NCBI GenBank assembly: GCA_016000045.1
Contig: JAECQY010000003.1
Location: 91 to 64,090 of the forward strand
Source of the DNA: Myxococcaceae bacterium
GTDB lineage: Bacteria; Myxococcota; UBA727; JABDBI01
Reading direction: 5' to 3'
DNA: 64,000 bases
Positions 4,236 to 56,029 of the stretch are shown here, piece after piece; within the stretch, counting starts at the first letter, position 1, and the number at the start of each line of letters is the position of its first letter. The notes beneath the pieces are model-generated. The model had not been told where the DNA came from and made no database searches. It was given only the letters and a program-made list of their open reading frames with translations. The position numbers and the translations under genes are program-made.

Positions 4236-5723
4236 GTGGCGTTGTTTGTTTTCGCTATTATCTTTGCGAGCTCTTGGGGAGTTGCTTCGACTGATTCGAG
4301 TTTGTTTTGCAATAATTTTTCTGTGCAGCTCTATCTTACCTCTGCCTCTGAAAAAGCCCTTCCTGAGCCTGTGCTTCCAGTTTTGCTAACGGACATAACT
4401 GAAAATGGGGTTGCGGTATCGACAGTAGCGGGTGCTGTGGCGATGGTGGACCCCACACAGATCGCTCAGAATGCTCGTTCTGGGTTGACAGTGGATTTGC
4501 TGAGCTGCAACGAAGCCTTGTCAGTCCAAGCGGGTCCACTACCTTGGGCCAGCAGTCCGACTCGCTTGGCTTTAGGAGACGATTGGCTTCGGTATGACGA
4601 AGGCGCTGTCATAGGAAACTGGGTCTTAATGACGGGTGTACTCGTTATCGGCGCGGGAGTGGCTCATAAAATGGGCTTTGAAGTGGTACAATTTCCAGGT
4701 GCACTCATTTTGCCAACCTTCTTCTTGATTTCTTCCACCTTTGCTTCTTCGATAGCACTCCTGCGAGAGGGTGCTCCGGGTCAACAAGCAATTGGTTGCT
4801 TGTCAATGTCTGCTTCATTGGTGGGCATTAGCATCGTTGCGCTGAGGCTATCCCCTCGATTTTTCCAAGCTCAATGGGATGAGGAAAATTGTGTATGGGT
4901 CGATCGAAGCGAAAGTCAAACAGGTTGGGTCCTTCGTTATGGGAAATTGTTTGATTCCTACATCAAGGGCAGGCAAGGCTATGTGGTGATCGAGTTGTTA
5001 ACTTCCATAGCCGTAGGCACTTTAAAGTCGTATCAAATTTTAGAGCAAAATTGTGCGACATTGCTATGGTCAGGAGCTGCCGTTTACGATCTTTATGCTC
5101 TCTCACAAATAGCTCTGCATCCCCATCGAGATCGATATGCGCAAATTTTTTACAGCACAGTTGCTACACTCCAAGCAGTGGCATTAACCACGCAAGCCAT
5201 CGCTTCGGTGTCCAGCTCGGAAGAGACGCAAGAGCAAGTTAAAGTGGTCACTCAATCAATCGTTACAGCAACTCGGTACGTGATGATGGTTAAAACCCTG
5301 CTCGGGGTTGGATTGCGAGCTAAAGACTGGTTCGATCGCTTTCGCCAGTCAAGGCTCGCTCCACCTTTATCTTTAGAGCCAGAAAAGCTATTGAAAGAAG
5401 CACTGCCCGAAGTTTCGGTTTTCCCTTCCACGGAACCCTTGGTAAATCTACTGCTTTCGGATCAGGGCCCAGAGTTGTTAGCTGTAGACGAAGGGAGCTC
5501 GATTGAGCAAGAGTTACGGTCAATGCAGGAGGTATTGTCTGCCGATACATCTTTACGAAGTGAAGAAGGATTGCAGCCGACCCTCATGGTCCAAGATCCT
5601 TTTTCATTCGGATTAAGCTCTATTCATGCCACTCCGAGAACTTTGAATGAAGCTATTGAGCATACCGATTATCATTTGAAAACCGACGAAATGTTGCCAA
5701 TAAATCTGGAGAAACCACTTTGA
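4236..5723 (+). CDS. hypothetical polytopic membrane protein
   Basis: 495-aa ORF with several hydrophobic helices (e.g. GNWVLMTGVLVIGAGVAH, ILPTFFLISSTFASSIALL). GTG start. Its stop overlaps the start of the next gene (TTGA). Confidence 0.6.
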   Translation: MALFVFAIIFASSWGVASTDSSLFCNNFSVQLYLTSASEKALPEPVLPVLLTDITENGVAVSTVAGAVAMVDPTQIAQNARSGLTVDLLSCNEALSVQAGPLPWASSPTRLALGDDWLRYDEGAVIGNWVLMTGVLVIGAGVAHKMGFEVVQFPGALILPTFFLISSTFASSIALLREGAPGQQAIGCLSMSASLVGISIVALRLSPRFFQAQWDEENCVWVDRSESQTGWVLRYGKLFDSYIKGRQGYVVIELLTSIAVGTLKSYQILEQNCATLLWSGAAVYDLYALSQIALHPHRDRYAQIFYSTVATLQAVALTTQAIASVSSSEETQEQVKVVTQSIVTATRYVMMVKTLLGVGLRAKDWFDRFRQSRLAPPLSLEPEKLLKEALPEVSVFPSTEPLVNLLLSDQGPELLAVDEGSSIEQELRSMQEVLSADTSLRSEEGLQPTLMVQDPFSFGLSSIHATPRTLNEAIEHTDYHLKTDEMLPINLEKPL

Positions 5724-6616
5724 ACAATAAATTAGTGCTTTGTTTTTTGCTGCTCAATCACTTTGGATTCGCTGGATATTTCCACGAAACGAATGTATCC
5801 GATACGGTAGCCAATGAAGCACTAATTCGATTGATTTCGAATAAAACACTTCCTGAGAAAGAGCAGAAAGGATTGATGTCAGTAGGTCTTCATGCGCTGT
5901 TGCAATACCTTTCGCCACAGATTCAAGCGATGCCTGATTACGTCGGTCGATTTCGGGCGAACTGCTCGCTTTTTATGAACTTTCGTATCGAAAAAGTGTC
6001 CTGCGATGTGACATGGACTTGGGCTGAAATGAAAGCCATTGGCTATAACTTGAGTGCGAATTTTCATTTGCCTTCGGAATACCTGGAACAGATCCGACAA
6101 AGCGATATTATGCTGGTCAATATTGATGCGGATTGGAGTGGCAAAACGACAGCTTACTCGGAACAATATGCGTTGGGTCAATTTACTCGAACACTGCCTT
6201 GCGCATTGACAGCGAGTGTGACGGGGCCCTCTGAAACTACGACTGAATGGCTCAGTTCGAGCAAAAGCCAAAACTCCTCTCAAACACCGAGTGAAAGTTT
6301 AAGCAAATCATGGGATTTCAGCGCAACAACCTTTATTTCGCGTTCCAAAACCGCCAGCAGAATTTTGACGAACTCAAACGCGAGCTTAAGTCTAGGCTGT
6401 AGCAATAGTGTCACCGATACCGCTTCTGAAACCTTCGTCAGCAGTTTTAGTACAACTCCAAGTTTCACTCAAATCCAAGCTACCGGCTCACCTTCCAGGT
6501 CAACGTTGTTTGCTCGTCTCAGCTTGACTTTGCTAAATTCTGAAAGCTTAAGCCAGAGTGACTTGCAGACTGGATCACATAGTTTCACTAACTGTACAAA
6601 TACTACGTGCCGGTAG
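5720..6616 (+). CDS. secreted protein of the window's paralogous family: conserved N-domain plus Ser/Thr-rich tail, no DUF1566 module
   Basis: Signal peptide MNNKLVLCFLLLNHFGFAG. N-domain aligns with 29329..31308 and 53519..56029 (LSPQIQAMPDYVGRFRANCSLFMNFRIEKVSCDV ... DWSGKT ... TLPCALTAS). TTG start overlaps the upstream stop. Confidence 0.65.
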   Translation: MNNKLVLCFLLLNHFGFAGYFHETNVSDTVANEALIRLISNKTLPEKEQKGLMSVGLHALLQYLSPQIQAMPDYVGRFRANCSLFMNFRIEKVSCDVTWTWAEMKAIGYNLSANFHLPSEYLEQIRQSDIMLVNIDADWSGKTTAYSEQYALGQFTRTLPCALTASVTGPSETTTEWLSSSKSQNSSQTPSESLSKSWDFSATTFISRSKTASRILTNSNASLSLGCSNSVTDTASETFVSSFSTTPSFTQIQATGSPSRSTLFARLSLTLLNSESLSQSDLQTGSHSFTNCTNTTCR

Positions 6617-6633
6617 AGTAGAAATCGGTAGAT

Positions 6634-7212
6634 TTAGGCATTCCCTTTATGATAGCAACAGCGGCAACGTGCTTCATAAGAATCGTTGGCTCCAACGAAA
6701 ACTTGACTTGTACTGCGATCTTTTAGACGAAAGCTTTTTGTTGCGGATGCTCCACATACAACACAAACGGCGCATTGTTTGGTCACCAGATCCGCAATCG
6801 CAAGCAGGTTTGGCATCGGGCCAAAAGGGCAACCGTCTGAGTCTTGATCCAGCCCGGATAGAATAACGCGGATGCCTGAATTCGCGAACTGTTCAACCAA
6901 AGGGATCAAGGAATGATCAAAAAACTGAGCCTCATCGATTCCAATCAGGTCGATTGGGCTTTGCAGCTGCTCAAGATATTGGACCATGTCATCGGGAGTT
7001 TCGATTGGAATCGAGGGAATCTTTTGAGCAGAGTGGCTGACAATTTGAATTTCATCGAAGCGGATATCGATTTTGGGCTTGAAAACGAGAATGCGTTGCT
7101 TGGCAATTTCGGCTCTTCTAAGCCTTCGGATCAGTTCCTCTGTTTTGCCAGAAAACATGGGCCCGCAGATGACTTCGATGACCCCGGTATTGAGTTGACG
7201 CATTGGTTCCAT
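6634..7212 (-). CDS. tdk: thymidine kinase
   Basis: [15 protein letters not shown]-loop. C-terminal Zn-ribbon CAVCVVCG...CRCCY. ~190 aa. Confidence 0.9.
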
Positions 7213-7231
7213 GGTTCTAATAAGCCCTTAC

Positions 7232-8521
7232 ATGATCAAAAATATTTCGAATTGGGAAGGGCGGAAACTAACCTTAAACGGATGGCTTTACAATAAGCGC
7301 GGTTCTGGAAAAATTCAATTTTTGCAAATTCGAGATGGAACGGGTTTTATTCAAGCGGTGATGAGCCGGCAGGATGTATCCGAAGAGGCTTTTGAGTCTG
7401 CATCAAGCTTGTCGCAAGAGTCTTCCTTGCAAGTCACTGGCGTCGTTCGAAAAGACGAGCGAGCCCCTTATTGCGGCTATGAACTTCAAGTGACGGATTT
7501 CAAGGCCGTTTCTCGCTCCGAAGAATATCCAATTTCGAAGAAAGAACACGGAGATGCTTTTCTCATGGACCATCGGCATCTTTGGTTGCGTTCTAGGCGG
7601 CAGCACGCAATTTTGCGCATTCGTGCCACGATTATTAAGGCTTGCCGCGATTACCTAGACTCCAATCATTTTTTATTGGTCGATAGCCCCATTTTTACCC
7701 CGAACGCTTGCGAGGGAACCTCCACGCTTTTCGAAACGCAATGGTTTGATCAAAGAAAAGCCTACCTTTCTCAATCCGGGCAACTTTATCAAGAAGCCGC
7801 TTGCATGGCTTTTGGGAAGTCTTATTGCTTTGGCCCAACTTTTCGAGCAGAAAAAAGCAAAACACGCCGGCACTTGAATGAATTTTGGATGGTGGAGCCA
7901 GAAGCTGCATTTATGGATTTGGAAGGCGATATTCAGCTTGCCGAAGATTTTTTATGCTTCGTGGTTGAACGAGTTTTGAACCAGCACGAACAGGAACTCG
8001 TCGAGATTCTTGAGCGTGATTTAACAGTCGTCAAGAATACCCAAAAGCCGTTTCCAAGATTGCATTACCAAGATGCAGTGCATAAAATCCAAGAACTTGG
8101 GATGGAAATTGAGATGGGAGGCGATTTTGGAGCTCCTCATGAAACCGAACTGACGAAACAGTATGATCGGCCTTTAATCGTCACGCATTTCCCAGCCGCG
8201 ATTAAAGCCTTTTATATGAAAAAAGATTCGGCGGATCCGACCTACGCTGCTTGTATGGATGTTTTAGCCCCAGAAGGCTATGGCGAGATTATTGGGGGCG
8301 GGCAGCGTGAGGAAAATTTGGATCTTCTCTTGCAAGAAATCGATCGACACGGTTTAAATCAAGCAGATTTTGAATGGTTTTTGGATCTCAGGCGCTACGG
8401 CTCCGTGCCACATGCCGGTTTTGGGATGGGAATTGAACGCTGTGTCGCTTGGATCTGCGGCCTGCATCATGTGCGAGAGACGATTCCATTCGCTCGCACG
8501 CTAGACCGACTCAGTCCATGA
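7232..8521 (+). CDS. asnS: asparagine--tRNA ligase
   Basis: Class IIb layout. C-terminus [16 protein letters not shown]...[34 protein letters not shown] matches AsnRS. Size ~430 aa. Start at MIKNIS; the track ORF starts at 7211. Confidence 0.9.
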
Positions 8522-8532
8522 ACCTGTTTGAT

Positions 8533-9168
8533 TTAGTTGACCGGCGGGGGTGCTAAGCGGTTTTTACCTTGCAAAGCATCGTTAATCCGCTGCGCAAGTT
8601 CCTCTGATTCTGGCGAGTTATCTTTCGAGTGAACTCGAAAAAGCTTTCGATTGCGATCGCCTGTGATCACACGAAGCTCAAGAACGTCAGACACGCCTTC
8701 TAGAATTCGACCTAGGCCTTGAGGACTGGATTCAGGGCCCAGTTGTTCCAAGACTCGAGTCGTTCTTTCTGGGCTCATCCCGAGACGAGAAGCTGCTCGT
8801 TGAGGAGTTGCGAAAGAATCCAAATTTCTTTGAATCAAGGCAATTCGTTGCTCTACGTCTCTTAAGCCTGGGGCTTCTCGATTTCCATGATGGCGCAGCA
8901 AATACGCTTCGTAGAGAGCGACTGCCTGGCGAAACTGTTCTCGCAGAGAAGTGGTGGGACCTTCTCTTTGGACGGTTTGAAGCAATTGATTAAACCTGGT
9001 TTGATGCTGTGCAAGTCCGGTTCCGCGCAAAATAGACCAGGCGAGGGTTGCCGTTGCCCAAGCACCTTTCAAAAAGCCATTCGGATTTTCATTCTTTCGA
9101 GCTGCAAAACTGACTGAAGGCACGAGTAAACTGAAGGCGAAAGAGAGTGTGAATATTTTTCTAATCAT
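8533..9168 (-). CDS. hypothetical secreted protein
   Basis: Signal peptide MIRKIFTLSFAFSLLVPSVSFAA. First gene downstream in a 6-gene same-strand cluster. Confidence 0.5.
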   Translation of the reverse strand: MIRKIFTLSFAFSLLVPSVSFAARKNENPNGFLKGAWATATLAWSILRGTGLAQHQTRFNQLLQTVQREGPTTSLREQFRQAVALYEAYLLRHHGNREAPGLRDVEQRIALIQRNLDSFATPQRAASRLGMSPERTTRVLEQLGPESSPQGLGRILEGVSDVLELRVITGDRNRKLFRVHSKDNSPESEELAQRINDALQGKNRLAPPPVN

Positions 9169-9531
9169 TTATTTGGCTCCAATTTGTTTGAGCTCTTGAT
9201 GGGCTGCCCAGCATAAAGACACACTGGCCGCAATAACAGCGACAAATCCGACCGCTCCAACCAACAGCTTCTCCTGGCTAAGGTAACCTTTTTCTGAAAG
9301 AGCTTTGGGTGATTCTGTCAAGGGCTCGTGCTTCACTTCGAACTTGATGAGTGATTTCAGGTCGGGCTTTGGAGTCGCCTCTGAGCAGGTATCGGCATCC
9401 AAAGGGATTTGATCTTCTGCACACAAAATCCAGCATTCCTGATCACTTTCATTCCAGCGATAAGCATCCGCACATTCATCCGCGAACAAAGAAAAAGCAA
9501 ATAGAAAATTAATTACTAAAAAAGATTTCAT
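9169..9531 (-). CDS. hypothetical small envelope protein (signal peptide plus C-terminal TM helix)
   Basis: MKSFLVINFLFAFSLFA signal. C-terminal LLVGAVGFVAVIAASVSLCWAA helix. Stop abuts the next start. Confidence 0.5.
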   Translation of the reverse strand: MKSFLVINFLFAFSLFADECADAYRWNESDQECWILCAEDQIPLDADTCSEATPKPDLKSLIKFEVKHEPLTESPKALSEKGYLSQEKLLVGAVGFVAVIAASVSLCWAAHQELKQIGAK

Positions 9532-9534
9532 TTA

Positions 9535-10188: not shown

Positions 10189-10200
10189 GATAAAAATCTC

Positions 10201-16768: not shown

Positions 16769-17830
16769 TTAAAAACACGATTCATTCATAGCATGCAAGG
16801 TTTTTAAGATGCGAGTTGAAATACGATAGGGGTCTGCGTTGGCTCCTGGCCTTCGATCTTCGATATAGCCGCATTTTTTGTTTGCTACCGGTTCTGGAAT
16901 ACGAATGGATGCTCCTCGATCGCAAGCACCCATCTTAAATGTGTTGATATCGGAGGTTTCGTGTAAACCCGTTAAGCGTTCTTCGAGGCCAAAGCCGTAT
17001 TCTGCGAGATGCTCTGGATGATGCTTCGATAAAGCTTCAACCAATTGATGGATCGAAGACCACCCTGTCTCCGGATCTCGCATGGCCTGAGTGGAAAAAT
17101 TCGTATGCATTCCGGCTCCATTCCAATTGGCTTTAGGCTTGCAGGACCAATTGATTGTGATGTTGCCATCCTCGGCTAGACGGATCAAAAGCCATCGAGC
17201 TATCCAGACTTGATCTGATATTGTAAGGGGATCCGCCGCTTCATGCTGCAAACCTCGATAACCAATTTGAAACTCCCATTGCGAAGGCATCACTTCGGCG
17301 TTGATCCCGTAAATGGCGAGGTTGGCCTCGGCGCAAGCAAATGCATGCGCTTCAACTAAATCACGGCCGAAGGTTCGATCCGAGCCAATGCCGCAATAAT
17401 AAGGACCTTGAGGAGCCAGTTCTTTCTCTGTTGGCCAGCCCAAGGGCCGTTCTCCTTGATACAGCGTGTATTCTTGCTCAAATCCAAACATGGCTTGCTC
17501 GTCTGAGGGGCTGTTTTGAAGCTCTTGCCTAAGTTTCGCACGGTAATTCGTTTCGTGGGCCGTTCCATCGGTGTTCAACACTTCGCACAAGACCAAGTAA
17601 TGATTTTCTCCACGAATGGGGTCGTTCACAAAGTAAGCGGGTTTTAAAATCAGATCCGAGTGACTGCCCGAAGCTTGATGAGTCGAAGAACCATCAAATC
17701 CCCAAATTGGAAACGAGTCCAGAGTTGGCAGTGAGTTTGAAAAATCCAGCATTCGGGTTTTATTGCGGAGAGCTTGAACCGGCTTTGTACCATCCAACCA
17801 AATATATTCGCAGAAACTGATCATGTTCAC
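16769..17830 (-). CDS. glnII: glutamine synthetase, type II (eukaryote-like GSII)
   Basis: ~350 aa. EYIWLDG, GFDGSSTHQASG, GPYYCGIG, EVMPSQWEFQIG, NWNGAGMHTNFST, TGLHETSDINTF, DRGASIRIP and EDRRPGANADPY all fit GSII rather than GSI. Confidence 0.85.
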   Translation of the reverse strand: MNMISFCEYIWLDGTKPVQALRNKTRMLDFSNSLPTLDSFPIWGFDGSSTHQASGSHSDLILKPAYFVNDPIRGENHYLVLCEVLNTDGTAHETNYRAKLRQELQNSPSDEQAMFGFEQEYTLYQGERPLGWPTEKELAPQGPYYCGIGSDRTFGRDLVEAHAFACAEANLAIYGINAEVMPSQWEFQIGYRGLQHEAADPLTISDQVWIARWLLIRLAEDGNITINWSCKPKANWNGAGMHTNFSTQAMRDPETGWSSIHQLVEALSKHHPEHLAEYGFGLEERLTGLHETSDINTFKMGACDRGASIRIPEPVANKKCGYIEDRRPGANADPYRISTRILKTLHAMNESCF

Positions 17831-29421: not shown

Positions 29422-31308
29422 ATGGTTTCTAGATGTCTGCTGGTTGCTTGTTTGGGAGCTCTGGCTGTTTCGAGTTTAGCCGGTATGGTGAATTTGACTT
29501 CCGTGGACGCTGCTACCTCGGCTTCTTGGGTGCAGCTGTTTGAAAATCGTTTGCTCACTCGAGCGGATGCCCAAGCTTTATCATTGAGCGGCATCCGAGG
29601 AGTTTTAGAGGCCTTAGCGCCTCAAATCAAAGCGCAGCCCGGTTACACGGGGATCTTTATCGCAAATTGCTCGCTGTACGTGAATACGATTCTCGAACGA
29701 GTGAGTTGCAATATCAGTTCTCCAGAAGCGGCGGTGCTAAGCGTGGCCCCTCTTTTGACGAATCAGACGCGTTTGCCTTGGGACTACGCCTACGAAATTA
29801 CGCGGAGTCACATTGTGCTGGTGAATGCATGGGTAGACTGGACGGGTCGATTGGCGTTGTATGACGAAGACTATGCGATTGCGGCCTACCCACGAATCGC
29901 GACCTGCAGTGCATCGATCACGCATACGGAGACAAACCCGAGCCTGACGGAGGCTCCGAGCGCTTCGCTCACCCAAAGCCACCGTGTAAGCGAATCGCTG
30001 AGCCCGAGTAGAAGTCCGAGTCTTTCACCAAGTGTTTCCGGTACACGAACTCTTGAACCGATTTTGACGCGAACGGAAAGCGACGATGGGAGCATGAGCG
30101 ACACGAACAGTCGAAGCCAGATCCTCAGCGCGAGCCCGAGTCTTTCACCAAGTGTTTCCGGTACACGAACTCTTGAACCGACTTTGACGCGAACGGAAAG
30201 CGACGATGGGAGCATGAGTGACACGAACAGTCGAAGCCAGACCCTCAGCGCGAGTCCGAGTCCTGAGCCCAGTCGATCATCGACCCAGACCGGCAGCTGC
30301 GCCAAGACGTTGAGCAGCAGCTCAAGTCTCAGCCTTTCGCCGAACCTTAGTTGGACAGAATCCGCCACTCCCAGCGAAGATCCAAGTTCCAGTGTAACTC
30401 TATACAATGGTCTCTTTGCCGCCTGGCATCGAAGTACCGGAGTCTATGCGGATGGCACGAGCCAACCGACTCGCTATTCGACGAGCAACGGCGTGGTAAC
30501 GGATGCTCTAACAGGCTTGCAATGGCAACTAAGTCCAAGTGCGTCCGTGATGAGTTGGGGCAATGGGGTCTCTTCCTGCGCGGCTGCTTCTACCGGAGGC
30601 TATTCGGATTGGAGGCTTCCGAATAACGTGGAGTTACTCACCTTGGTGGACTATACGATTGCTTCTACAGGCTCGACGCCTGGAATCAACGCGGTGTTTT
30701 CGGGGACTCCTTTGAACTATTTTTACACATCGACGCCTTTAGTAGGTTCTGCCAGCAAAAATCCATGGTGGGTGAGCTTTGGCCAGAATGCTTGTTATTC
30801 GGGTTTTCTGGAGAGCTTGGAATATAACCCGAGTTGTACGCCTGCGGTAGCTTCTCAGGGTTACGTTCGTTGTGTTCGATCGCCTTCAGAGGCACCTCTT
30901 CCTTTGAACCGATATACGATTGAAAGTGGCGCGGCATTAGGGACGGTGACCGATCAGGTCACGGGTTTGATTTGGCAGAAGGTAGCGCCTACCAGCGGGG
31001 GTCCGAATGGTAACGGGCTTTATACTCAATCGCAGGCTATCGCCTACTGCAGCAGTCTGAATCTAGGCGGTTCTGGAGCGGGAACGTGGCGCTTACCAAC
31101 AAACCGAGAGCTACAAACGCTGGTGGATTACAGCAAGGCCTATGGAAGCTTGATGATGGATACGACGGTGTTTTCGGGGGAACCGGCGAGCGGGTTTTGG
31201 TCGTCTCTGGTTGAATCCGCGTCCCGCGAATGGGGTGTACATTTCGGTGTTGGCCTTGTCTACACGAGTTACTTTACTAATACTTACTTTGTCCGTTGTG
31301 TGCGTTGA
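29422..31308 (+). CDS. secreted family member: conserved N-domain, Ser/Thr-rich linker with 2 x 40-aa exact repeats, two C-terminal DUF1566 modules
   Basis: Signal peptide MVSRCLLVACLGALAVSSLAG (AGGAG SD before ATG 29422; the track ORF starts at 29329). N-domain PQIKAQPGYTGIFIANCSLYVNTILERVSCNI...DWTGR. DUF1566 units WRLPNNVELLTLVDY...VRCVR and WRLPTNRELQTLVDY...VRCVR. Confidence 0.8.
   Translation: MVSRCLLVACLGALAVSSLAGMVNLTSVDAATSASWVQLFENRLLTRADAQALSLSGIRGVLEALAPQIKAQPGYTGIFIANCSLYVNTILERVSCNISSPEAAVLSVAPLLTNQTRLPWDYAYEITRSHIVLVNAWVDWTGRLALYDEDYAIAAYPRIATCSASITHTETNPSLTEAPSASLTQSHRVSESLSPSRSPSLSPSVSGTRTLEPILTRTESDDGSMSDTNSRSQILSASPSLSPSVSGTRTLEPTLTRTESDDGSMSDTNSRSQTLSASPSPEPSRSSTQTGSCAKTLSSSSSLSLSPNLSWTESATPSEDPSSSVTLYNGLFAAWHRSTGVYADGTSQPTRYSTSNGVVTDALTGLQWQLSPSASVMSWGNGVSSCAAASTGGYSDWRLPNNVELLTLVDYTIASTGSTPGINAVFSGTPLNYFYTSTPLVGSASKNPWWVSFGQNACYSGFLESLEYNPSCTPAVASQGYVRCVRSPSEAPLPLNRYTIESGAALGTVTDQVTGLIWQKVAPTSGGPNGNGLYTQSQAIAYCSSLNLGGSGAGTWRLPTNRELQTLVDYSKAYGSLMMDTTVFSGEPASGFWSSLVESASREWGVHFGVGLVYTSYFTNTYFVRCVR
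30015..30255. repeat. Intragenic tandem repeat, 2 x 120 bp (about 97% identical)
   Basis: gtccgagtctttcaccaagtgtttccggtacacgaactcttgaaccg... is repeated head-to-tail. Encodes SPSLSPSVSGTRTLEP(I/T)LTRTESDDGSMSDTNSRSQ(I/T)LSA twice. Confidence 0.85.
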
Positions 31309-31406: not shown

Positions 31407-32627
31407 TTGACAAAAATAAAATTGTCTTGTACGATCGACAGCGTGTTAAGCGAAATAGATTTGATGGAAATTTTAAATGATTGGAGCTTTTGGGAAAAAG
31501 CGCCTTCTACAGCCGATGTGCATCGAGATGTCGAACTACCCAAAAGTTTATCCGCAGATTTGGTATTAATTATCCAAGGGGTACGCCGTGGAGGTAAATC
31601 GACTTTACTGCAGCAAATACCAGCTCACTACCAGTTTAGTTTAGCAAACTGCTATTATTGCAATTTTGAAGATCCGCGTCTTATCAATTGTTTGAACCAC
31701 GAACTACTGGGAGATATTGTACGAATCGCCCGGAAAGATAGACCCACCAACGAGCCATGCTATTTCTTCTTTGATGAGATCCAACATGTGTTTGCCTGGG
31801 AAAAATGGCTGCACATGCAGCTAGAAAGGCCAAAGCATAATTACTTTGTTGTCACAGGTTCAAGTTCTGTATTGCTCAGTGGGGAGTTTGATTCAGCTCT
31901 TACAGGGCGTCACAGAACACTCCAATTATATCCATTTTCGTTTAGGGAATATTTAAAATTGTTTCCAGAGCGAATGCTTGAGTCTTATTTGATGAGCGGA
32001 GGATTTCCTAGGACACTGACTCATGGTGAGCCCAAACTCTTGTTGCAGGAATATTTTAATGACATCCTTTTAAGAGATGTATTAAGGCGTGTTGGAGCTC
32101 GATCTGTTGATCCGATTAAACAAGTTGCTAAATTGGCGTTTGATACTTGTGGGTCACAATTAAGCTACAGAAAAATCGCTGCCATCACTCATTTAACTGT
32201 AGAAACGGTTCAAAACCATCTGTTGGCTTGTGAACAGGCTTATCTACTATTTAATTGTTCTTTTTTTGCATTCTCGGAAAAGAAACGTTTGAGCCGCCAT
32301 AAAAAATTCTACCCCATTGATCCTGGTCTACGAACTGCAGTCACCAGCAACACAAGTCGTGATTACGGCAAAGCACTCGAGCAGCTTGTCTTTTTGAAAT
32401 TAAAACAACAGTGTGATCAGGTGTACTACTGGGAATCGCCTTTGGGAGGCGAAGTGGATTTTGTTACGGTCTCTGGAGATACAATCACGCCTTATCAAGT
32501 CACCTGGCAGGAAGCGAAGCCCAGGCACGAGAAAGCACTGGGTAGCTTCTATGAATCATTTCCACAGGCGAACGAAGCCATAATCATTCAGCAACAGAAT
32601 GCGGCTGACTTTCTATTAGGTCCTTAG
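31407..32627 (+). CDS. AAA+ ATPase of the AAA_14/DUF4143 type
   Basis: Walker A GVRRGGKSTLLQQI. Walker B FFFDEIQ. C-terminal region typical of DUF4143 ATP-binding proteins (from memory). Confidence 0.7.
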   Translation: MTKIKLSCTIDSVLSEIDLMEILNDWSFWEKAPSTADVHRDVELPKSLSADLVLIIQGVRRGGKSTLLQQIPAHYQFSLANCYYCNFEDPRLINCLNHELLGDIVRIARKDRPTNEPCYFFFDEIQHVFAWEKWLHMQLERPKHNYFVVTGSSSVLLSGEFDSALTGRHRTLQLYPFSFREYLKLFPERMLESYLMSGGFPRTLTHGEPKLLLQEYFNDILLRDVLRRVGARSVDPIKQVAKLAFDTCGSQLSYRKIAAITHLTVETVQNHLLACEQAYLLFNCSFFAFSEKKRLSRHKKFYPIDPGLRTAVTSNTSRDYGKALEQLVFLKLKQQCDQVYYWESPLGGEVDFVTVSGDTITPYQVTWQEAKPRHEKALGSFYESFPQANEAIIIQQQNAADFLLGP

Positions 32628-49826: not shown

Positions 49827-49827
49827 T

Positions 49828-50565: not shown

Positions 50566-51163
50566 GAAAGATCAGACTGAGCAGAGAGTCGTCTTGCTAG
50601 AGAACCATGCAGAACAAGTATTTGAGCTCGAAGCCCATTCTCACCTGAACTACACCTGCCTGTCGCTCGCTCAGAAAGATTTAAGGCATTCGATCCGAGT
50701 CCTCTTTCTCGGAGAGCACGCTTCGTGCACAATTAAAATTCTTGATTTTGCTAAATATAACAGCAAGTTAGAGTCTACTATTCATGTAATACATCAAGTC
50801 TCTAATTGCAGCAGCTCGGTTTTGCATAAGGGCCTCTATCGAGATGCTTCGCAAGGTTCTTTTCATGCGCAAGTGAACGTTGGTGCAAAAACAATGGGAT
50901 CGGAGGCGGTCCAAATGCATCGAAGCCTTTTGCTATCGCCCGATGCACGGTGCCAAGCAGATCCCCATTTGGTCATTCAGACGGATTCGGTGAAATGCAA
51001 GCATGGGGTCACAGTTGGGCAGCTTGATGACAAGGCTCTTTTTTACCTACAAGCTCGAGGATTGAGCATCTTGGAAGCTCAACGCCTGCTCATACAAGCG
51101 TTTTCAAATGAAATCATTGGCCAGTTCCCTGAATTTCAAAAGCGAGTCGAAGCATGGATATAG
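50549..51163 (+). CDS. sufD: SufD-like protein, short form (~204 aa; C-terminal SufBD domain only)
   Basis: Position between sufC and sufS. C-terminal ...HGVTVGQLDDKALFYLQARGLS...LIQAF matches the SufD tail. About half the usual length. Confidence 0.7.
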   Translation: MIQRIEKDQTEQRVVLLENHAEQVFELEAHSHLNYTCLSLAQKDLRHSIRVLFLGEHASCTIKILDFAKYNSKLESTIHVIHQVSNCSSSVLHKGLYRDASQGSFHAQVNVGAKTMGSEAVQMHRSLLLSPDARCQADPHLVIQTDSVKCKHGVTVGQLDDKALFYLQARGLSILEAQRLLIQAFSNEIIGQFPEFQKRVEAWI

Positions 51164-52329
51164 CCCAGCAATTTCCCCTTTTAAACCGGCTAGTACATGG
51201 CCGTCGTCTGGTTTACTTAGATACAGCGGCAACGGCTTTAAAACCTCTGTGCGTTATCGAGGCAGAACGTGCCTATGAACAGGAGTTTTGCGCGAACGTG
51301 CACCGTGGCGTTCACGCTCTGAGTGAACAAGCCACACGCGAATTTGAATCGGCTCGTTCGGAGGTTCAGCATTTCATCCAAGCTCCCTCGACCCAAGAAA
51401 TTATTTTCACTTCTGGAACTACCGAGTCGATTAATTTACTCGCTCATTCTTATTCAAAAGCCTTTTTGAAGCCTGGTGATGAGATATGGATTTCTAGCCT
51501 GGAGCATCACTCGAACTTGGTTCCTTGGCAAATGGCAGCAAAATACTACCATTGCCACTTGAAAGTCATTCCGCTGGATCACGTGGGTGAAATTCCTTTC
51601 GGTCCCACAGCCCGTTTGCTTGCCGTCACCTACGCTTCCAACGCGCTGGGAGTTCTGAATCCTCTTTCGAGCTGGATCGCACAAGCGAAAGCGCATGGAA
51701 TGCAGGTACTGATCGATGCCGCTCAAGCGGCGGTACATGTTCCCATCGATGTTCAGGCTCTAGGATGCGATTTTTTGGTTTTTTCAGGTCATAAAGTTTA
51801 TGGCCCAACAGGAACGGGGATTCTTTGGGGAAGGGAACACTTACTGGAGCAAATGCCTCCGTATCAAATGGGCGGGGACATGATCGAGTCGGTTCGCTTC
51901 GAAGATACGCGTTTTGCGAAACTGCCCGCTAAATTTGAGGCTGGAACACCGAATATTGCGGGCGTGATCGGCCTCGGGGAAGCTTTGAGATGGCTCAAGG
52001 TTCAAAATCATGAAGCTCTCACTGCGCTCACCCAATACGCTCGAGAGCAGCTTCTTTCCGTGCCAGGCCTCCGGCTTTTCGGGGATCAACCTCATAAAAT
52101 GCCTCTTTGGTCTTTTTTGCTCAGCGACGTTCACCCCCATGATATTAGTTCAATTGTCGATCGTGAAGGAGTTGCCATTCGAGCAGGGCACTTATGCGCA
52201 CAACCCTTGATGCAATTGCTCGGTGTTTCCGCTTTGGTCCGAGCTTCTTTCGGTCTGTACAATACGCGAGAAGATGTGGACGCTTTGGTTTACGCTTTGC
52301 ATCAAGTAAGACGGGTCTTTCGATGTTAG
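51154..52329 (+). CDS. sufS: cysteine desulfurase SufS
   Basis: FSGHKVYGPTGTGILWGR (PLP Lys), catalytic Cys region RAGHLCAQP. Confidence 0.9.
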   Translation: MDIAQQFPLLNRLVHGRRLVYLDTAATALKPLCVIEAERAYEQEFCANVHRGVHALSEQATREFESARSEVQHFIQAPSTQEIIFTSGTTESINLLAHSYSKAFLKPGDEIWISSLEHHSNLVPWQMAAKYYHCHLKVIPLDHVGEIPFGPTARLLAVTYASNALGVLNPLSSWIAQAKAHGMQVLIDAAQAAVHVPIDVQALGCDFLVFSGHKVYGPTGTGILWGREHLLEQMPPYQMGGDMIESVRFEDTRFAKLPAKFEAGTPNIAGVIGLGEALRWLKVQNHEALTALTQYAREQLLSVPGLRLFGDQPHKMPLWSFLLSDVHPHDISSIVDREGVAIRAGHLCAQPLMQLLGVSALVRASFGLYNTREDVDALVYALHQVRRVFRC

Positions 52330-52760
52330 ATGATTTGTATCAAGAACTGATTCTGGACCATAGCCGGCATCCTCACCATTACGGAGATCTGCCGGGTTCC
52401 ACCCATTCGGCTCATGGGCATAACCCCTTGTGCGGAGATGAGCTGTTTGTTTACCTGGTAATTGAAAACGCTCGCATCCAAAACATTCGATTTCAGGGGG
52501 AAGGTTGTGCCATATCCAAAGCTTCTGCTTCGCTGATGACCGACGAGTTAATTGGAAAAACGCTCCAGGAAGCACGAATCCTTTTTCAAGAATTCCATGA
52601 GCTTTTAACGCAGGAAAAAGATCAATTCGATCATCTGGTCAAAGCACAGGCCTTGCGAGGAGTTCGCGAATTTCCGGTTCGGGTGAAATGCGCCACGCTC
52701 GCTTGGCATACTTTTGAGGCCGCTTTAAAAGAGCAAGCCGCTGAAATAACAACGGAGTAA
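52326..52760 (+). CDS. sufU: SufU/IscU-like sulfur-acceptor scaffold
   Basis: NPLCGDEL...GEGCAISKASASLM...KCATLAW conserved Cys triad; ATG overlaps sufS stop. Confidence 0.85.
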   Translation, partial: LDDLYQELILDHSRHPHHYGDLPGSTHSAHGHNPLCGDELFVYLVIENARIQNIRFQGEGCAISKASASLMTDELIGKTLQEARILFQEFHELLTQEKDQFDHLVKAQALRGVREFPVRVKCATLAWHTFEAALKEQAAEITTE

Positions 52761-52768
52761 AAGGTTTC

Positions 52769-53311
52769 ATGCATATGTACGGTGGTGGAGTGAACGTTCA
52801 ATTGAGCAGAGATTGCGTGGGTATTCAGATCCCCAATGGCGACTCTATGACCCTTGAACAGGGACACGAAGTCTATATCACCCAAGTTCTGGGCGGAATG
52901 TTCACGGTTGAAACAGAATGGGGTTATCTGGTCCGGATTGACGGAAAAGATGCAGACGCCTTAGGACAAACCGTTCCCGAAGAACGTCAAAAACCAAATT
53001 GGGAACAATACGCCAGTTTGGAAGAAGCAGCCTGGGCTCAACTCAGAACCTGTTACGACCCTGAAATACCGGTGAATATTGTCGAGCTCGGACTGGTCTA
53101 TGAATTGGAAATTTTGGGTTCAGACCTACGAGTTCAGATGACTTTAACGGCTCCTGGATGCGGCATGGGAGAAGTCCTCAAGAACGATATTGAAACCAAA
53201 CTTCGAGAAATACCGGGAATAGAAACCGTTATCATCGATCTCACCTTTGATCCACCCTGGAGCACAGAAAGAATGTCCGATGCGGCTCGATTGCAATTAG
53301 GCATGATGTAA
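52769..53311 (+). CDS. SufT-like DUF59 (MIP18-family) Fe-S assembly protein with ~80-aa N-terminal extension
   Basis: CYDPEIPVNIVELGLVYEL...LTAPGCGMG matches DUF59. Confidence 0.75.
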   Translation: MHMYGGGVNVQLSRDCVGIQIPNGDSMTLEQGHEVYITQVLGGMFTVETEWGYLVRIDGKDADALGQTVPEERQKPNWEQYASLEEAAWAQLRTCYDPEIPVNIVELGLVYELEILGSDLRVQMTLTAPGCGMGEVLKNDIETKLREIPGIETVIIDLTFDPPWSTERMSDAARLQLGMM

Positions 53312-53357
53312 ATCAGTTGCAAAGCTTCAAGTCCTACGCTAAGCCGATCCCAATGAT

Positions 53358-53434
53358 CGGGGTGTAGCTCAGCTTGGTAGAGCGCTTGGTTCGGGACCAA
53401 GAGGCCGCAGGTTCAAATCCTGTCACCCCGACCA
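53358..53434 (+). tRNA. tRNA-Pro (CGG)
   Basis: CGGGGUGUAGCUCAGCUUGGUAGAGCGCUUGGUUCGGGACCAAGAGGCCGCAGGUUCAAAUCCUGUCACCCCGACCA. 7-bp acceptor stem, anticodon loop UUCGGGA. Confidence 0.9.
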
Positions 53435-53518
53435 AAATCAACGAAAAAAAGTGGTAATCGTAGCATCGTTACAGACTTTATTTTTGTTTCGATTTTTATA
53501 AAAATAAAAATCCCGTCT

Positions 53519-56029
53519 TCAACGCACGCAGCGGACATAGTTCGCGCTGCTGATGCCATACGTGTTGACGCTGCCACCACCGAAATTCACGCTCCACGCA
53601 ACGGACGGGGGCGTGCAAGAATAAGGCGTTGATGTCCAAAACCAACTCTGAGGCGTGCTTGGAAAAGCCGTCGTGTTCATTGTTGGACCCGGAGATGCTA
53701 CGCGAACATCCAGAAGCGTCGACAATTCTTTGACATTGGGAAGACGCCAGCTCAAACCGTCCAGATTCAAACCCGCACAATAAGCCTGTGCAGAACTCCA
53801 GTTATAGGTTCCAGAAACCGTTCGCTGCCAAATCAAGCCCGTTACGGTGTCCAGAACCTGCGTGCTATTAAAGGTATAACGATCTACCTCTCGAACCGCC
53901 GATGAGGGTCGCACACAACGCGTAAAGCCGTTCGCAGGCACTGAAGAACAACCGCTATAACCCTGGCTGCAAACGAGGCCTGCGTAATACGCACCGCTAC
54001 CGTAACTCACCCACCAAGCACTGCCCGGGTAACCCTGCAAAGCGTCGGAGGACCAATAGTAACTGCTGGTTTGAGTGCCTGGAAAAAAATCCAGATCCAC
54101 GCTGGGACCAGCGCAATCTATCGTATAATCCACCAAGGTCTGAAGTTCCACGTGCGTGGGCAAACGCCAGTCCCCAAAACCAGACTCAAACAGATTAGCA
54201 CAATAAGCTTGGGCAGCTGTCCAATTGCCTGCAGGCGCATTCCCTACCTTTTGCCACTGCAGACTCGTCATTTGATCCGTGACAATCCCCGGAACGGATT
54301 CAAGGTAGCGGCCCGTTTGATTGGCGTTGTCTCGATAGACACCCGTTGTCACTTGCCAATTCGCCCACTCGGGATTGTAAACCTGAGGAGAACGCACACA
54401 ACGGACACAGTACGTAACACTGATGAGATACGTGCCGACGCTGCCATAACCGAAATCCACGCCCCACGCACCGGACGAGGGTGCACACGAATAAAGCATT
54501 GATGTCCAAAATATGTTCTGCGGTGTACTCGGAAAAGCCGTCGTATTGATCGTCGAACCCGGGTACGCCACATGAATATCCAGAAGCGTCGACAATTCTT
54601 TGACATTGGGAAGGCGCCAGGGCAAACCATCCAGGTTTAAACCCGCACAATAAGCCTGTGCCGAACTCCAGTTATAGGTTCCGGAAACCGTTCGTTGCCA
54701 AATCAAGCCCGTCACCGTGTCTAACACCTGTGTACTGTTAAAGGTATAACGATCCACCTCTCGAACCGCCGACAAGGGTCGCACACAACGCGTAAAGCCA
54801 CTCGCAGGCACTGAAGAACAACCACCATAACCCTGGCTGCAAACGAGTCCCGCGCCATAGGCACCGCTGCCGTAACTTACCCACCAAGCACTGCCCGGGT
54901 AACCCTGTAAAGCGTCGGAGGACCAATAGTAACTGCTGGTTTGAGTGCCTGGGAAAAAATTCAGATCCAGGCAGGGGCCAGCGCAATCCATCGTGTAATC
55001 GACCAAGGTCTGAAGTTCCACGTGTGTGGGCAAACGCCAGTCCCCAAACCCAGACTCAAGCAAATCAGCGCAATAGGCCTGGGCAGCCGTCCAATTGCTA
55101 GCAGGTGCACTCCCTACCTTTTGCCACTGCAAACCTGTCATCCGATCCGTGATAACCCCTGGAACGGATTCAAGATAGCGGCCCGTTTGATTGGCGTTGT
55201 CTCGATAGACACCGGTTGTCACTTGCCAATTCGCCCACTCGGGATTCCAAATCACCGGAGCGCTTGGGCTTTCGGTAGGACTCAAGGTTTGGGAATACGA
55301 CAAACTTCCGCTCGTCTCAGACGCACTGAGAGTCCTGCTTGAGCTTCTCGTGGCCGACTCCACATCGCTCAGCGTACGAGTACGCTTTTGACTCGGGCTT
55401 AAGCCCTCGGTGAAAGAAAGGCTGAGCGTATCCAGCAAACTCACAGTATTCCGAGAAGAGGCTTTGCTGAAGGTTTGGCTGAGCGTTGGTTTTGTTTGCG
55501 AAACACTCGCAGACGCGGTGCACGTTGGCATCCGATCGAACAAACGAACGGCATAAGACTCCGAGGACAGCGACGTCTTACCCGTCCAATCGGCGTAAAA
55601 ACTCACCAATAAAATCGCGCTTTCGGTAATTTGATGCTCATATTCCAAAGGAAGCCAGGAACTTTGTCCGCAGCACTCCGGTCTCCCCAAAGCGATCGTG
55701 GAGTTGATCTCACACAAAACGCGCTCGATGTGAGTGTTCATGAAAATGGAACAATTGGCCACAAATTGGCCCGTATAATCCGGCATCGCTTGAATCGCCG
55801 GAGTTAACTCGGCAAACAAAGCCTTCAATCCGGTCGAAAACAATTGTTTTTGCTGGGCGGCAGGCAATGTCTGGTTCGAAACGAGCTGCGTTAGTGCCTG
55901 ATTCGCCACGGCATTCGTTACCTGGCTTTGATTAAGCCAGGCAGCAACAGCGGCTTGCCCCCAAATGAAGAACACCCAAAGCCTTGCCGGCCTCAAGCAC
56001 CGTGCTTGGGTTTTTAGATTTTTCCTCAT
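53519..56029 (-). CDS. large secreted family member: conserved N-domain, S/T-rich linker, then a duplicated ~290-aa block holding four DUF1566 modules
   Basis: Signal peptide MRKNLKTQARCLRPARLWVFFIWGQAAVAA (cat at 56027-29). N-domain PAIQAMPDYTGQFVANCSIFMNTHIERVLCEI...DWTGKT. Repeated WRLPTHVELQTLVDY...FTRCVR and WRLPNVKELSTLLD...VRCVR. Confidence 0.8.
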   Translation of the reverse strand: MRKNLKTQARCLRPARLWVFFIWGQAAVAAWLNQSQVTNAVANQALTQLVSNQTLPAAQQKQLFSTGLKALFAELTPAIQAMPDYTGQFVANCSIFMNTHIERVLCEINSTIALGRPECCGQSSWLPLEYEHQITESAILLVSFYADWTGKTSLSSESYAVRLFDRMPTCTASASVSQTKPTLSQTFSKASSRNTVSLLDTLSLSFTEGLSPSQKRTRTLSDVESATRSSSRTLSASETSGSLSYSQTLSPTESPSAPVIWNPEWANWQVTTGVYRDNANQTGRYLESVPGVITDRMTGLQWQKVGSAPASNWTAAQAYCADLLESGFGDWRLPTHVELQTLVDYTMDCAGPCLDLNFFPGTQTSSYYWSSDALQGYPGSAWWVSYGSGAYGAGLVCSQGYGGCSSVPASGFTRCVRPLSAVREVDRYTFNSTQVLDTVTGLIWQRTVSGTYNWSSAQAYCAGLNLDGLPWRLPNVKELSTLLDIHVAYPGSTINTTAFPSTPQNIFWTSMLYSCAPSSGAWGVDFGYGSVGTYLISVTYCVRCVRSPQVYNPEWANWQVTTGVYRDNANQTGRYLESVPGIVTDQMTSLQWQKVGNAPAGNWTAAQAYCANLFESGFGDWRLPTHVELQTLVDYTIDCAGPSVDLDFFPGTQTSSYYWSSDALQGYPGSAWWVSYGSGAYYAGLVCSQGYSGCSSVPANGFTRCVRPSSAVREVDRYTFNSTQVLDTVTGLIWQRTVSGTYNWSSAQAYCAGLNLDGLSWRLPNVKELSTLLDVRVASPGPTMNTTAFPSTPQSWFWTSTPYSCTPPSVAWSVNFGGGSVNTYGISSANYVRCVR
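53522..55246. repeat. Intragenic tandem duplication, 2 x ~870 bp (about 90% identical)
   Basis: Unit starting aacgcacgcagcggacatag at 53522 recurs at 54392 (aacgcacacaacggacacag). Protein blocks NPEWANWQVTTGVYRDNANQTGRYLESVPG... repeat almost verbatim. Confidence 0.85.

Follow-up and report, generated by a model that had tools for sequence, protein, structure and literature searches.

Three genes in the window (the whole stretch of 64,000 nucleotides that was analysed), referred to below by their first coordinates as the 5720, 29422 and 53519 genes, encode proteins that share an N-terminal domain (N-domain), and a fourth gene at the window start encodes a DUF1566 protein (Table 1). The first-pass annotation had placed all four genes in one family. 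This grouping holds for the three N-domain genes, and the visible part of gene 1-426 shares with them only the DUF1566 module. The order of modules proposed earlier, an N-domain followed by a Ser/Thr-rich linker and DUF1566 modules, was borne out by the composition of the linkers (44-45% Ser+Thr) and by matches to the Pfam family PF07603 (Lcl_C, DUF1566), membership of which was defined as an HMM score above the gathering threshold of 34.9 bits; the 29422 gene scored 155.5 bits with two modules and the 53519 gene 348.3 bits with four. The 5720 gene gave no Lcl_C match in the Pfam scan and consists, as had been stated, of an N-domain and a linker alone. Its TTG start codon overlaps the TGA stop codon of the upstream gene, with GGAG located 8 nt upstream. 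The NCBI protein of the 53519 gene has the same length as found here and an identical start.

Table 1. Genes and features of the N-domain family, its membrane-protein partner and the DUF1566 fragment in the window.
Feature	Position	Strand	Description
Gene	1..426	+	C-terminal fragment of DUF1566 protein, N-terminus beyond the window
DGR variable region	345-423	+	Last 79 coding bases of gene 1-426
Conserved 3' flank of the variable region	427..470	+	GGATGGGATGTTGACGCTTTGACTTTTGGTCC...
Gene	4236..5723	+	Orphan membrane protein, 495 aa, directly upstream of 5720..6616
Gene	5720..6616	+	298 aa, "headless" member without DUF1566; same ORF in NCBI
Signal peptide	5720-5776	+	In gene 5720..6616
N-domain	5777-6214	+	In gene 5720..6616
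Ser/Thr-rich tail	6215-6613	+	In gene 5720..6616
Gene	29422..31308	+	628 aa; signal peptide, N-domain, Ser/Thr-rich linker, two Lcl_C/DUF1566 modules
N-domain	29485-29916	+	In gene 29422..31308
Lcl_C/DUF1566 modules (two)	about 30484-31305	+	In gene 29422..31308
Gene	53519..56029	-	836 aa; signal peptide, N-domain, Ser/Thr-rich linker, four Lcl_C/DUF1566 modules
N-domain	55523-55939	-	In gene 53519..56029
Lcl_C/DUF1566 modules (four)	about 53522-55177	-	In gene 53519..56029

The earlier view that the proteins are secreted agreed with a crude hydrophobicity test, by which signal peptides were found in 30 of the 33 complete family members. The leaders end in A-x-A-type sites and not in a lipobox Cys. 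The DUF1566-bearing proteins end in ...VRCVR without a C-terminal hydrophobic tag, and Pfam and NCBIfam scans and terminal motifs revealed no SLH, LysM, OmpA-like, PEP-CTERM/MYXO-CTERM or lipobox signal. Across the family, the C-terminus varies from one to about 12 Lcl_C modules to LRRs or unknown sequence. The intragenic duplications seen earlier are genuine: a 120-nt tandem repeat (2.1 copies, 96% identity) is located at 30016-30262 in the linker of the 29422 gene, and the four modules of the 53519 gene arose by duplication of an 870-nt stretch that spans two Lcl_C modules, with copies about 88% identical. They had been taken as a sign of diversifying selection. However, because 63 of the 109 differences between the duplicated modules of the 53519 gene fall at third codon positions, this duplication shows purifying selection instead.

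When the N-terminal regions of the three proteins were aligned computationally, pairwise identity was not at chance level but 33-48% over about 145 aa, with 38 invariant columns. The core P-x-I-x-A-x-P-[DG]-Y-x-G-x-F-x-A-N-C-S... and the motifs L-P-x-[ED]-Y and D-W-[ST]-G described previously were recovered in this alignment. A profile built from the three sequences retrieved each window member at E values of 1e-75 to 1e-81, and an exhaustive profile search across 1.84 billion proteins yielded 38 cluster representatives with the N-domain. Therefore, the likeness among the three genes is far above chance. In nearly all complete members, the domain is found at about residues 20-165, directly after the signal peptide. 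As had been suspected, it is previously undescribed and belongs to no family of Pfam, NCBIfam, PHROGs or the PDB: profile and sequence searches of these collections gave no match, and comparison of the confident AlphaFold model (pLDDT 88.6), an alpha/beta domain, with solved and viral structures found nothing similar. Residues F59, C63 and C76 are invariant among 31 sequences; in the model, C63 and C76 are placed one on each strand of a predicted hairpin, and a disulfide may form in these proteins. The motif N-C-[ST] is kept in 29 of 31 N-domains. N-x-S/T sequons are approximately 4 times denser in N-domain proteins than in other window genes; measured against composition, the excess is modest (z about 2-3.7), and several members do not show it.

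All named members of the family come from MAGs labelled "Myxococcaceae bacterium", and at least 10 N-domain paralogues bear accessions of the source MAG, in agreement with the family expansion that had been proposed. Among 185,579 species-representative genomes, one was positive, and the domain was absent from the JGI metagenome contigs and viral contigs that were scanned. The N-domain family is confined to one uncultured bacterial lineage.

DUF1566 is a recognised class of variable region of diversity-generating retroelements (DGRs), corresponding to the DUF1566/CLec2 variable proteins of category "d" of Wu et al. 2018, for example Legionella LdtA (PMC5758913). A DGR as the diversification mechanism in the present family had escaped the first-pass annotation. 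A gene was regarded as a DGR target when its variable region was matched by a template repeat (TR) with mismatches almost only at template adenines. Locus L002, from a relative, contains a complete cassette of bAvd, TR and RT, and in two family genes, which flank a partner gene, 22 of 24 and 24 of 27 mismatches between the TR and the variable region were located at TR adenines. Judged by this mismatch pattern, the N-domain family is a DGR target class in this lineage. In the source species, an orthologous RT (62% identity, motif IGNLTSQ) adjoins the paralogue P0010 at locus L010. Neither Avd nor an A-rich TR was found at this locus; therefore, the DGR of the source species may be decayed. The window itself yielded no RT or Avd (tblastn E > 0.1) and no TR, and most paralogues of the family are not adjacent to a DGR.

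The window contains a DGR variable region at the 3' end of gene 1-426. This gene (Lcl_C match in 22-426; 50.5 bits, E 3e-13) has an Ala/Val/Pro-rich linker in its visible part, unlike the Ser/Thr-rich linkers of the family. The block at 345-423 shares 81-83% identity with the 3' ends of P0010 and ORF152 of L010, and the 100 nt upstream of it are only 26-28% identical to them; of the mismatches, 14 of 15 and 15 of 15 affect the first or second position of a codon. The three copies vary at 20 sites, each of which is an adenine in the TR of L002, against only 7 of the 58 invariant sites of the block (Fisher p 4.5e-13). The sequence after the block is a flank of the kind seen at both L002 variable regions and differs from the flank after the TR. 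By this indirect comparison with the template of a relative, the block qualifies as a variable region. For the 29422 and 53519 genes, the comparison did not point to a DGR target, as their 3' ends differ from the set of variable regions at 12-17 of 58 normally invariant sites. Considering also that the C-terminus of the 29422 gene is identical in two MAGs, active diversification of these two genes is unsupported. The 5720 gene has no lectin module to which the comparison could be applied.

The conserved, translationally coupled partner gene at 4236-5723 was likewise missed earlier. Its product starts with a signal-like segment followed by a predicted extracytoplasmic region of about 100 aa with two conserved Cys. 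Hydropathy and a poor structure model (pLDDT 44) suggest approximately seven helices, three strongly hydrophobic (about 124-204) and four weaker (246-360), after which comes a disordered, acidic or Ser-rich C-terminal tail carrying a conserved PRTLNE motif. The protein has no match in Pfam, NCBIfam, PHROG or the PDB, and its family comprises just 9 members in 5.8 billion clusters. Homologues with 42-55% identity immediately precede N-domain genes at L002, L003, L004, L005, L007 and L010. The pairing recurs in 6 of 7 loci, and the pair has been duplicated as a unit. In the window and at L002, L003, L005, L007 and L010, the partner and N-domain genes have stop/start overlaps of 4-14 nt, and these loci span at least three populations. 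Pairwise identities of partners and of the adjacent N-domains are correlated (r=0.80, 15 non-independent pairs). Since the partner is encoded directly upstream in six independent loci, each with overlapping stop and start codons, the most likely reading is that the N-domain and the partner act jointly.

These findings suggest that the three genes encode Sec-exported modular proteins made of base, stalk and heads. The base would be the lineage-specific domain of about 145 aa with its two invariant cysteines; the stalk would be the Ser/Thr-rich low-complexity linker, variable in length and prone to duplication; and the heads would be C-type-lectin-like DUF1566 modules, from one to many per protein, with LRRs or unknown domains in their place in some paralogues. 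Through adenine-specific mutagenic retrohoming, the DGR would rewrite the tip of the last DUF1566 module, the part that binds the ligand. Given such diversification, the proteins are most likely binding proteins associated with the envelope, either adhesins or receptors, whose specificity varies; they are probably exported and located at the surface. The O-glycosylation of the stalks and the part in prey or host recognition suggested earlier would be hypothetical additions to this picture. The constant N-domain would serve a function common to all paralogues. In the preferred version, it would dock on the extracytoplasmic part of the partner, with which it is presumed to make physical contact, and thereby tether the lectin, which may also be coupled to the cytoplasmic tail of the partner. 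On the whole, it appears moderately probable that the window proteins are envelope-associated, hypervariable lectin-like binders whose N-domain works with the membrane partner. A further step, in which the N-domain and the partner with approximately seven helices form a new kind of transmembrane receptor, with an exported DGR-diversified lectin subunit plugged through its N-domain into the polytopic partner, whose conserved cytoplasmic tail would relay binding inward, seems improbable.

Several observations count against docking. The window gene coupled to a partner, the 5720 gene, has no lectin head; the 29422 and 53519 genes have no partner gene alongside; and approximately 3 partner paralogues were seen in the source genome against at least 10 N-domain genes. 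The organism is also apparently diderm, as a BamD/YfiO-like protein and MurA are encoded in the window. A partner built of alpha-helices would be expected in the inner membrane; consequently, a docked lectin would be periplasmic unless it also crossed the outer membrane.

The small number of partners relative to many possible substrates would fit an enzyme or chaperone devoted to processing, exporting or modifying N-domain proteins, with the N-domain as its recognition tag. Such a factor could act in sorting as an enzyme, deliver proteins to the outer membrane, or decorate the Ser/Thr stalk as a glycosyltransferase or flippase. The polytopic partner has invariant polar residues in or near its helices (R177, E253, Q267, C273 and Q313), and the Ser/Thr content of the stalks, the density of sequons and the conservation of N-C-[ST] would suit decoration. 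However, the partner does not resemble exosortase, rhombosortase, CPBP, Wzy_C or GT-C families, and no Pfam or PDB entry matched it. Sortase-like or GT-C-like enzymes would be marked by catalytic Cys/Arg/His residues or an acidic motif in a periplasmic loop; R177 and C273 are invariant in the partner, but neither a His nor the acidic pair usual in such enzymes is. The sequon enrichment is modest and uneven, as noted above. Moreover, known sorting tags are short C-terminal peptides and not folded N-terminal domains of 145 aa. A processing role of the partner is considered rather unlikely.

The N-domain might instead anchor the protein to the surface alone, through a lipid, LPS or another envelope component, with the neighbouring gene unrelated or loosely related to it, for example as a passenger of the DGR cassette. 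This would avoid the diderm topology problem and would account for the many N-domain genes without a partner alongside. It has a parallel in Legionella Lcl, with its N-terminal anchor, stalk and DUF1566 head, which is secreted and then rebound to the surface (PMC11162425). However, the recurrent stop/start overlap, the same extremely narrow distribution of the two families and their correlated divergence would not be expected of an unrelated neighbour, and self-anchoring is judged unlikely. Bacteriocin and polymorphic-toxin loci commonly show features seen here: two tightly linked genes duplicated as a unit, a protein that is exported, a polytopic membrane protein encoded next to it and a domain that targets with variable specificity. 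The N-domain could accordingly be imagined as an effector (a toxin or membrane-active domain, for instance) delivered to lectin-bound cells, with the upstream protein conferring immunity. In polymorphic toxins, however, toxicity resides in the variable C-terminal part, with the immunity gene downstream, while in the present family the N-domain is conserved and is preceded by the partner gene. This explanation is very unlikely, given also that the N-domain has no toxin-family match, that most N-domain genes have no adjacent partner and that binding proteins are what DGRs have so far been described to target (PMC5758913).

The preferred reading, a lectin-like binder working with a membrane partner, may be compared with known systems. 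The family resembles the LdtA class in the placement of the variable region at the very C-terminal end of a DUF1566-type C-type-lectin-like module, the adenine-specific mismatches to the TR, the bAvd and RT with an IGxxxSQ motif (in the relative with locus L002) and a target that is exported and presumably surface-displayed. LdtA is described as a surface lipoprotein (PMC5758913), whereas the present proteins have an ordinary signal peptide followed by the undescribed 145-aa domain, a Ser/Thr stalk and frequently numerous DUF1566 modules in tandem; they also differ in the pairing with an orphan membrane protein and in that most paralogues are not beside a DGR. Lcl of Legionella pneumophila combines N-terminal surface attachment by a 30-residue amphipathic helix, an extended stalk formed by a collagen triple helix and a single trimeric, glycan-binding DUF1566 head at the C-terminus (PMC11162425). 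The same lollipop layout is found here, as deduced from the genes alone, with a globular base, a Ser/Thr-rich stalk and tandem heads. Membership of the Lcl family itself was rejected, since there is no collagen G-x-y repeat or Pfam collagen match and the N-terminus is the 145-aa alpha/beta domain.

Mtd of Bordetella phage BPP-1 and TvpA of Treponema are reportedly the classical DGR targets. They are said to share with the present family a DGR-diversified binding site of the C-type-lectin fold at the C-terminus; they reportedly differ in lectin subclass, in N-terminal parts serving phage tail-fibre attachment or forming a lipoprotein, and in having no membrane-protein partner. In Myxococcus, TraA/TraB is the receptor for outer-membrane exchange; TraA has a variable PA14-like N-terminal domain and a C-terminal MYXO-CTERM tag, and TraB is OmpA-like. 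The likeness lies in a polymorphic lectin-like surface recognition domain and a co-encoded envelope partner in Myxococcota-labelled bacteria, but Pfam scans found no sequence relation to TraA or TraB.

DGR-diversified C-type-lectin proteins are the nearest bacterial counterpart of programmable binding proteins. The binding class itself, DGR-diversified DUF1566, was already known; the N-domain and the membrane partner are new. The findings bear on how the variable head of cellular DGR targets is mounted on the cell and on what receives its signal: the constant base is a compact, confidently modelled domain without a known relative, genetically coupled to an equally novel membrane protein. Two candidate domain families are thus added to databases that return nothing at present. 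One DGR serves several dispersed targets in this uncultured lineage, and the cassette at one locus has seemingly lost its template. The two-component system raises the testable question of whether the base docks on the partner and whether the partner tethers, exports or signals. If the receptor reading were true, the family would be a hypervariable sensing system and not a passive adhesin.

The three ORFs reported in the first-pass annotation were present as described, and the NCBI annotation of the source MAG gave identical protein lengths. Alignment of their products confirmed a common N-terminal region comprising the first ~165 residues, with 33-48% identity and 38 invariant columns that included all of the motifs quoted earlier. 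Of the proposed four-gene family, three genes were shown to have the N-domain, the ~145-aa domain located in this region; the visible part of gene 1-426 matched only via its DUF1566 module, a module with a C-type-lectin-like fold. This gene extends past the window edge, and its linker, as judged from the visible part and 30 extra residues from a sister contig, is Ala/Val/Pro-rich. The Ser/Thr-rich character of the other linkers was borne out (Ser+Thr, 44-45% of the linker), as were the intragenic duplications: a 120-nt tandem repeat with 96% identity in the 29422 gene and an 870-nt two-module unit with ~88% identity in the 53519 gene. Between the duplicated modules of the 53519 gene, 63 of 109 differences were at third codon positions, i.e., mostly of synonymous type; in the final 120 nt alone, the differences moved to codon positions 1 and 2 (17/24). 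The C-terminus of the 29422 gene was identical in the two MAGs compared. N-x-[ST] sequons occurred at ~2 per 100 aa in family proteins versus ~0.5 in 34 other window genes, and N-C-[ST] was kept in 29 of 31 N-domains. A reading as N-glycosylation was dropped because enrichment over composition-matched shuffles was modest (z ~2-3.7) and some members showed none; conservation of N-C-[ST], which is nearly invariant, perhaps has a structural reason.

Locations of the family genes, of their partners and of other features discussed in the text (locations without a prefix refer to the window)
Feature	Location	Strand	Remarks
N-domain gene	5720-6616	+	298 aa; no DUF1566 module (Pfam)
N-domain gene	29422-31308	+	628 aa; two Lcl_C/DUF1566 modules (Pfam)
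Tandem repeat	30016-30262		120-nt unit
N-domain gene	53519-56029	-	836 aa; four Lcl_C/DUF1566 modules (Pfam)
DUF1566 gene fragment	1-426		one Lcl_C/DUF1566 module (Pfam match, 22-426)
DGR variable region	345-423		last 79 coding bases of the gene fragment
Membrane-protein partner	4236-5723	+	495 aa
Predicted ATPase	2732-3952	-	AAA-ATPase_like (PF09820)
Predicted ATPase	31407-32627	+	AAA_14 and DUF4143 (Pfam)
Glutamine-synthetase-like ORF	16769-17830	-	353 aa; Gln-synt_N 4e-13, Gln-synt_C 1e-11
ORF resembling DNA polymerase I	56101-57231	-	polymerase part, by eye
Overlapping ORF	57218-58231	-	14-nt overlap with the preceding ORF
Dit-like phage tail protein gene	L002:91-651		PF21821; PHROG 817 'tail fiber'
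Second variable region	L002:5921-6045		in-frame TGA
Template repeat	L002:6652-6776		125 nt
Second RT fragment	L003:1246-1842	-	RVT_1
Phage-type integrase	L004:888-1721	-	
Tandem partner paralogues	L005:1559-2890, 3015-4409		
RT locus of the source species	L010:1-5924		

No credible match to the N-domain was found in Pfam, and NCBIfam and PHROGs were empty, in agreement with the earlier statement that it could not be placed in a known family. No matches came from a word-indexed search for homologues of the three N-regions or from a first genome-collection scan. When a three-sequence profile was compared with all 1.84 billion cluster representatives at a cut-off of E<=1e-3, 38 proteins were recovered, 26 of them at E<=1e-10. 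All members with a source name came from MAGs that the depositors had labelled 'Myxococcaceae bacterium', the remainder being Logan or JGI contigs; exact-protein look-up of three members (P0050, P0052 and P0011) returned no record. At least 10 paralogues were found under accessions of the window's own MAG, so that the suggested expansion within the genome holds. With a 10-sequence query subset, one of 185,579 species-representative genomes, MAG ELA443 with the same label, was found to encode the N-domain. Neither the JGI metagenome contigs nor the viral contigs yielded it on scanning; these contig scans rest on short degenerate patterns, which divergent members could escape. A phage origin of the family was considered and dropped, there being no PHROG match and no member on viral contigs.

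In nearly all complete members, the N-domain occupies approximately residues 20-165, directly after a signal-peptide-like leader, and 30 of 33 complete N-termini passed a crude leader test. In an alignment of 31 sequences, F59, C63 and C76 were invariant and N62 nearly so, and a third Cys stood at the boundary with the linker in 23 sequences. The AlphaFold2 model built from this alignment is confident (pLDDT 88.6, pTM 0.81) and consists of a short strand, two helices, one of them 24 residues long, and an approximately five-stranded sheet. In this model, the invariant Cys pair lies on opposite arms of one hairpin, which would be compatible with a disulfide in an exported domain. It may be concluded that the N-domain is a real, narrowly distributed and new domain, with no family or fold match so far.

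Family members share the N-domain and the S/T-rich linker and differ in the C-terminus. According to Pfam, the latter carries one to ~12 Lcl_C modules in P0016, P0017 and P0040 and LRRs in P0024; P0026, P0028 and P0045 have C-termini with no Pfam match, and the product of the 5720 gene has no such C-terminal part. Since the N-terminal module stays constant and the C-terminal binding modules are exchangeable, the N-domain would have a common 'housekeeping' role (attachment, assembly or handling, for example) and not one in ligand specificity.

The ORF that precedes the 5720 gene encodes an orphan membrane protein, hereafter the partner. Its TGA stop and the TTG with which the 5720 gene starts overlap, and GGAG is found 8 nt upstream. 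Immediately upstream of N-domain genes, homologues with 42-55% identity occur, again with a stop/start overlap, on L002 and L003 (contigs of the ELA443 MAG), on L005/L006 and L007 (three unrelated Logan contigs) and on L010 of the source species, where the N-domain gene is P0010; on L004, the two genes are separated by 546 nt. The partner family equals the N-domain in rarity (a profile query still recovered only 9 of 5.8 billion clusters) and had no match in Pfam, NCBIfam, PHROG or PDB. Partner identities were correlated with those of the adjacent N-domains (r=0.80, 15 non-independent pairs); therefore, the pair was duplicated as a unit. On L005, two partner paralogues stand in tandem, the first only ~28% identical to the window partner, with a divergent N-domain gene upstream on the opposite strand and another N-domain gene starting from the overlapping stop downstream. 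A second, unrelated fragment of a reverse transcriptase (RT), with ~30% identity to the RT described below, was seen near the L003 pair, and a phage-type integrase near the L004 pair.

Hydropathy, alignment and a low-confidence AF2 model (pLDDT 44) suggest that the partner has a signal-like segment followed by an extracytoplasmic region of ~100 aa, in which two Cys are conserved, and by seven helices, three of them strongly and four weakly hydrophobic. A basic loop would span 205-247, and the tail, acidic or Ser-rich and disordered, carries a conserved PRTLNE motif. The predicted topology would be N-out and C-in with seven helices, consistent with the positive-inside rule.

A complete diversity-generating retroelement (DGR) was found in the relative, on L002. 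The order is Dit-like gene, N-domain gene 1, partner, N-domain gene 2, bAvd (PF22296), template repeat and RT, the last bearing RVT_1 with IGNLTSQ and YSDD motifs. Both N-domain genes match the template repeat at their 3' ends. The two variable regions differ from it at 24 and 27 positions, 22 and 24 of which are template adenines, which is the signature of mutagenic retrohoming; the N-domain family is thus a DGR target class. In the second variable region, an in-frame TGA, arising through G-to-A at a site other than a template adenine, ends the target gene ~30 codons early in the assembly. The Dit-like phage tail protein gene is directly upstream of the DGR-associated cassette, although neither the N-domain nor the partner matched a phage family or a viral contig.

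At the RT locus of the source species, the order is partner, P0010, DGR-type RT, ORF152 (a short Lcl_C ORF) and PD-(D/E)XK transposase. The RT is orthologous to that of the relative (62% identity, identical motifs); neither Avd nor an A-rich template repeat was found at this locus. The 3' ends of ORF152 and P0010 look like variable regions in their sequence; either as the template was rejected, since mismatches were not adenine-specific in either direction. Because the 3' end of P0010 holds the position of the relative's template repeat, with an identical downstream flank running into the RT start, loss of the template through recombination between variable region and template is suggested.

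Gene 1-426, in its final 79 coding bases and ~40 bases of 3' flank, has 81-83% identity to P0010 and ORF152 at their 3' ends; over the 100 bases upstream, identity is only 26-28%. Of the mismatches within the coding block, 14 of 15 and 15 of 15 are at codon position 1 or 2 in the two comparisons. The three copies from the source species vary at 20 sites, every one of them an adenine of the aligned L002 template; among the 58 invariant sites, this is true of 7 (Fisher p = 4.5e-13). The 3' flank (to 470) is conserved and of variable-region type (GGATGGGATGTTGAC...). Block identity, codon-position bias, adenine sites and flank type together identify this block as a DGR variable region. Its template and RT are located outside the window, in which a tblastn screen found neither RT nor Avd. 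At their 3' ends, the 29422 and 53519 genes depart from the variable-region set at 12-17 of 58 usually invariant sites, mostly at third positions, and also at 14-17 of 20 adenine sites. By this comparison, these genes are not current targets of that template; their 3' ends may be old DGR targets or simply binding sites under selection.

Exact-sequence matches assign the window to MAGs under the 'Myxococcaceae bacterium' label, GCA_015999675.1 and a sister MAG. The window has a G+C content of ~47%, and the genes around the family members are housekeeping genes (truA, hpt, tdk, asnS, infC, pheST, pyrG, murA, atpD, suf genes, two tRNAs and a TPR/BamD-like protein). Two predicted ATPases of mobile-element or defence flavour adjoin family genes. 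The ORF resembling DNA polymerase I and the same-strand ORF overlapping it could reflect gene splitting, a frameshift or faulty assembly. The glutamine-synthetase matches of another ORF were weak and partial, with Gln-synt_C covering less than half of the profile, and it may encode a divergent or truncated protein of this type. The source species is also present in SRR9332771, a metagenome obtained from groundwater biofilm after aerobic enrichment on diesel/crude oil (PMC7012980); the Logan contig L010 comes from this data set. Nothing specific was found in the literature on these assemblies or their locus tags, or on DGRs in Myxococc*.

In Legionella Lcl, DUF1566 forms a glycan-binding head on a stalk, and an N-terminal element binds the bacterial surface (PMC11162425); the window proteins likewise show a base, a stalk and a DUF1566 head. 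DUF1566 is also a recognised class of DGR variable region, exemplified by the surface lipoprotein LdtA (PMC5758913). Because of this anatomy and the DGR link, the window proteins are most likely exported base-stalk-head binding proteins of variable specificity. The N-domain base would cooperate with the co-encoded membrane protein, most likely by docking. We consider this statement as a whole somewhat better than an even bet. Specific docking of the N-domain onto the partner is a tentative proposal, with the balance tilted against it. Topology is the main objection: in a diderm, an alpha-helical partner would sit in the inner membrane, and any lectin docked to it would lie in the periplasm unless it also crossed the outer membrane. 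Partners are also fewer than N-domain genes. Instead of a docking site, the partner could be a processing, export or glycosylation factor for the co-encoded protein, or the N-domain could anchor the protein to the surface autonomously; a toxin/immunity pair is a further rival reading of the two genes.

The DUF1566 heads and the DGR diversification mechanism are of already known kinds. The N-domain, the orphan partner, the tight pairing of both and their combination with a DGR serving dispersed targets are new. Within a very narrow distribution, these genes provide a concrete, testable two-gene module around a putative hypervariable receptor.
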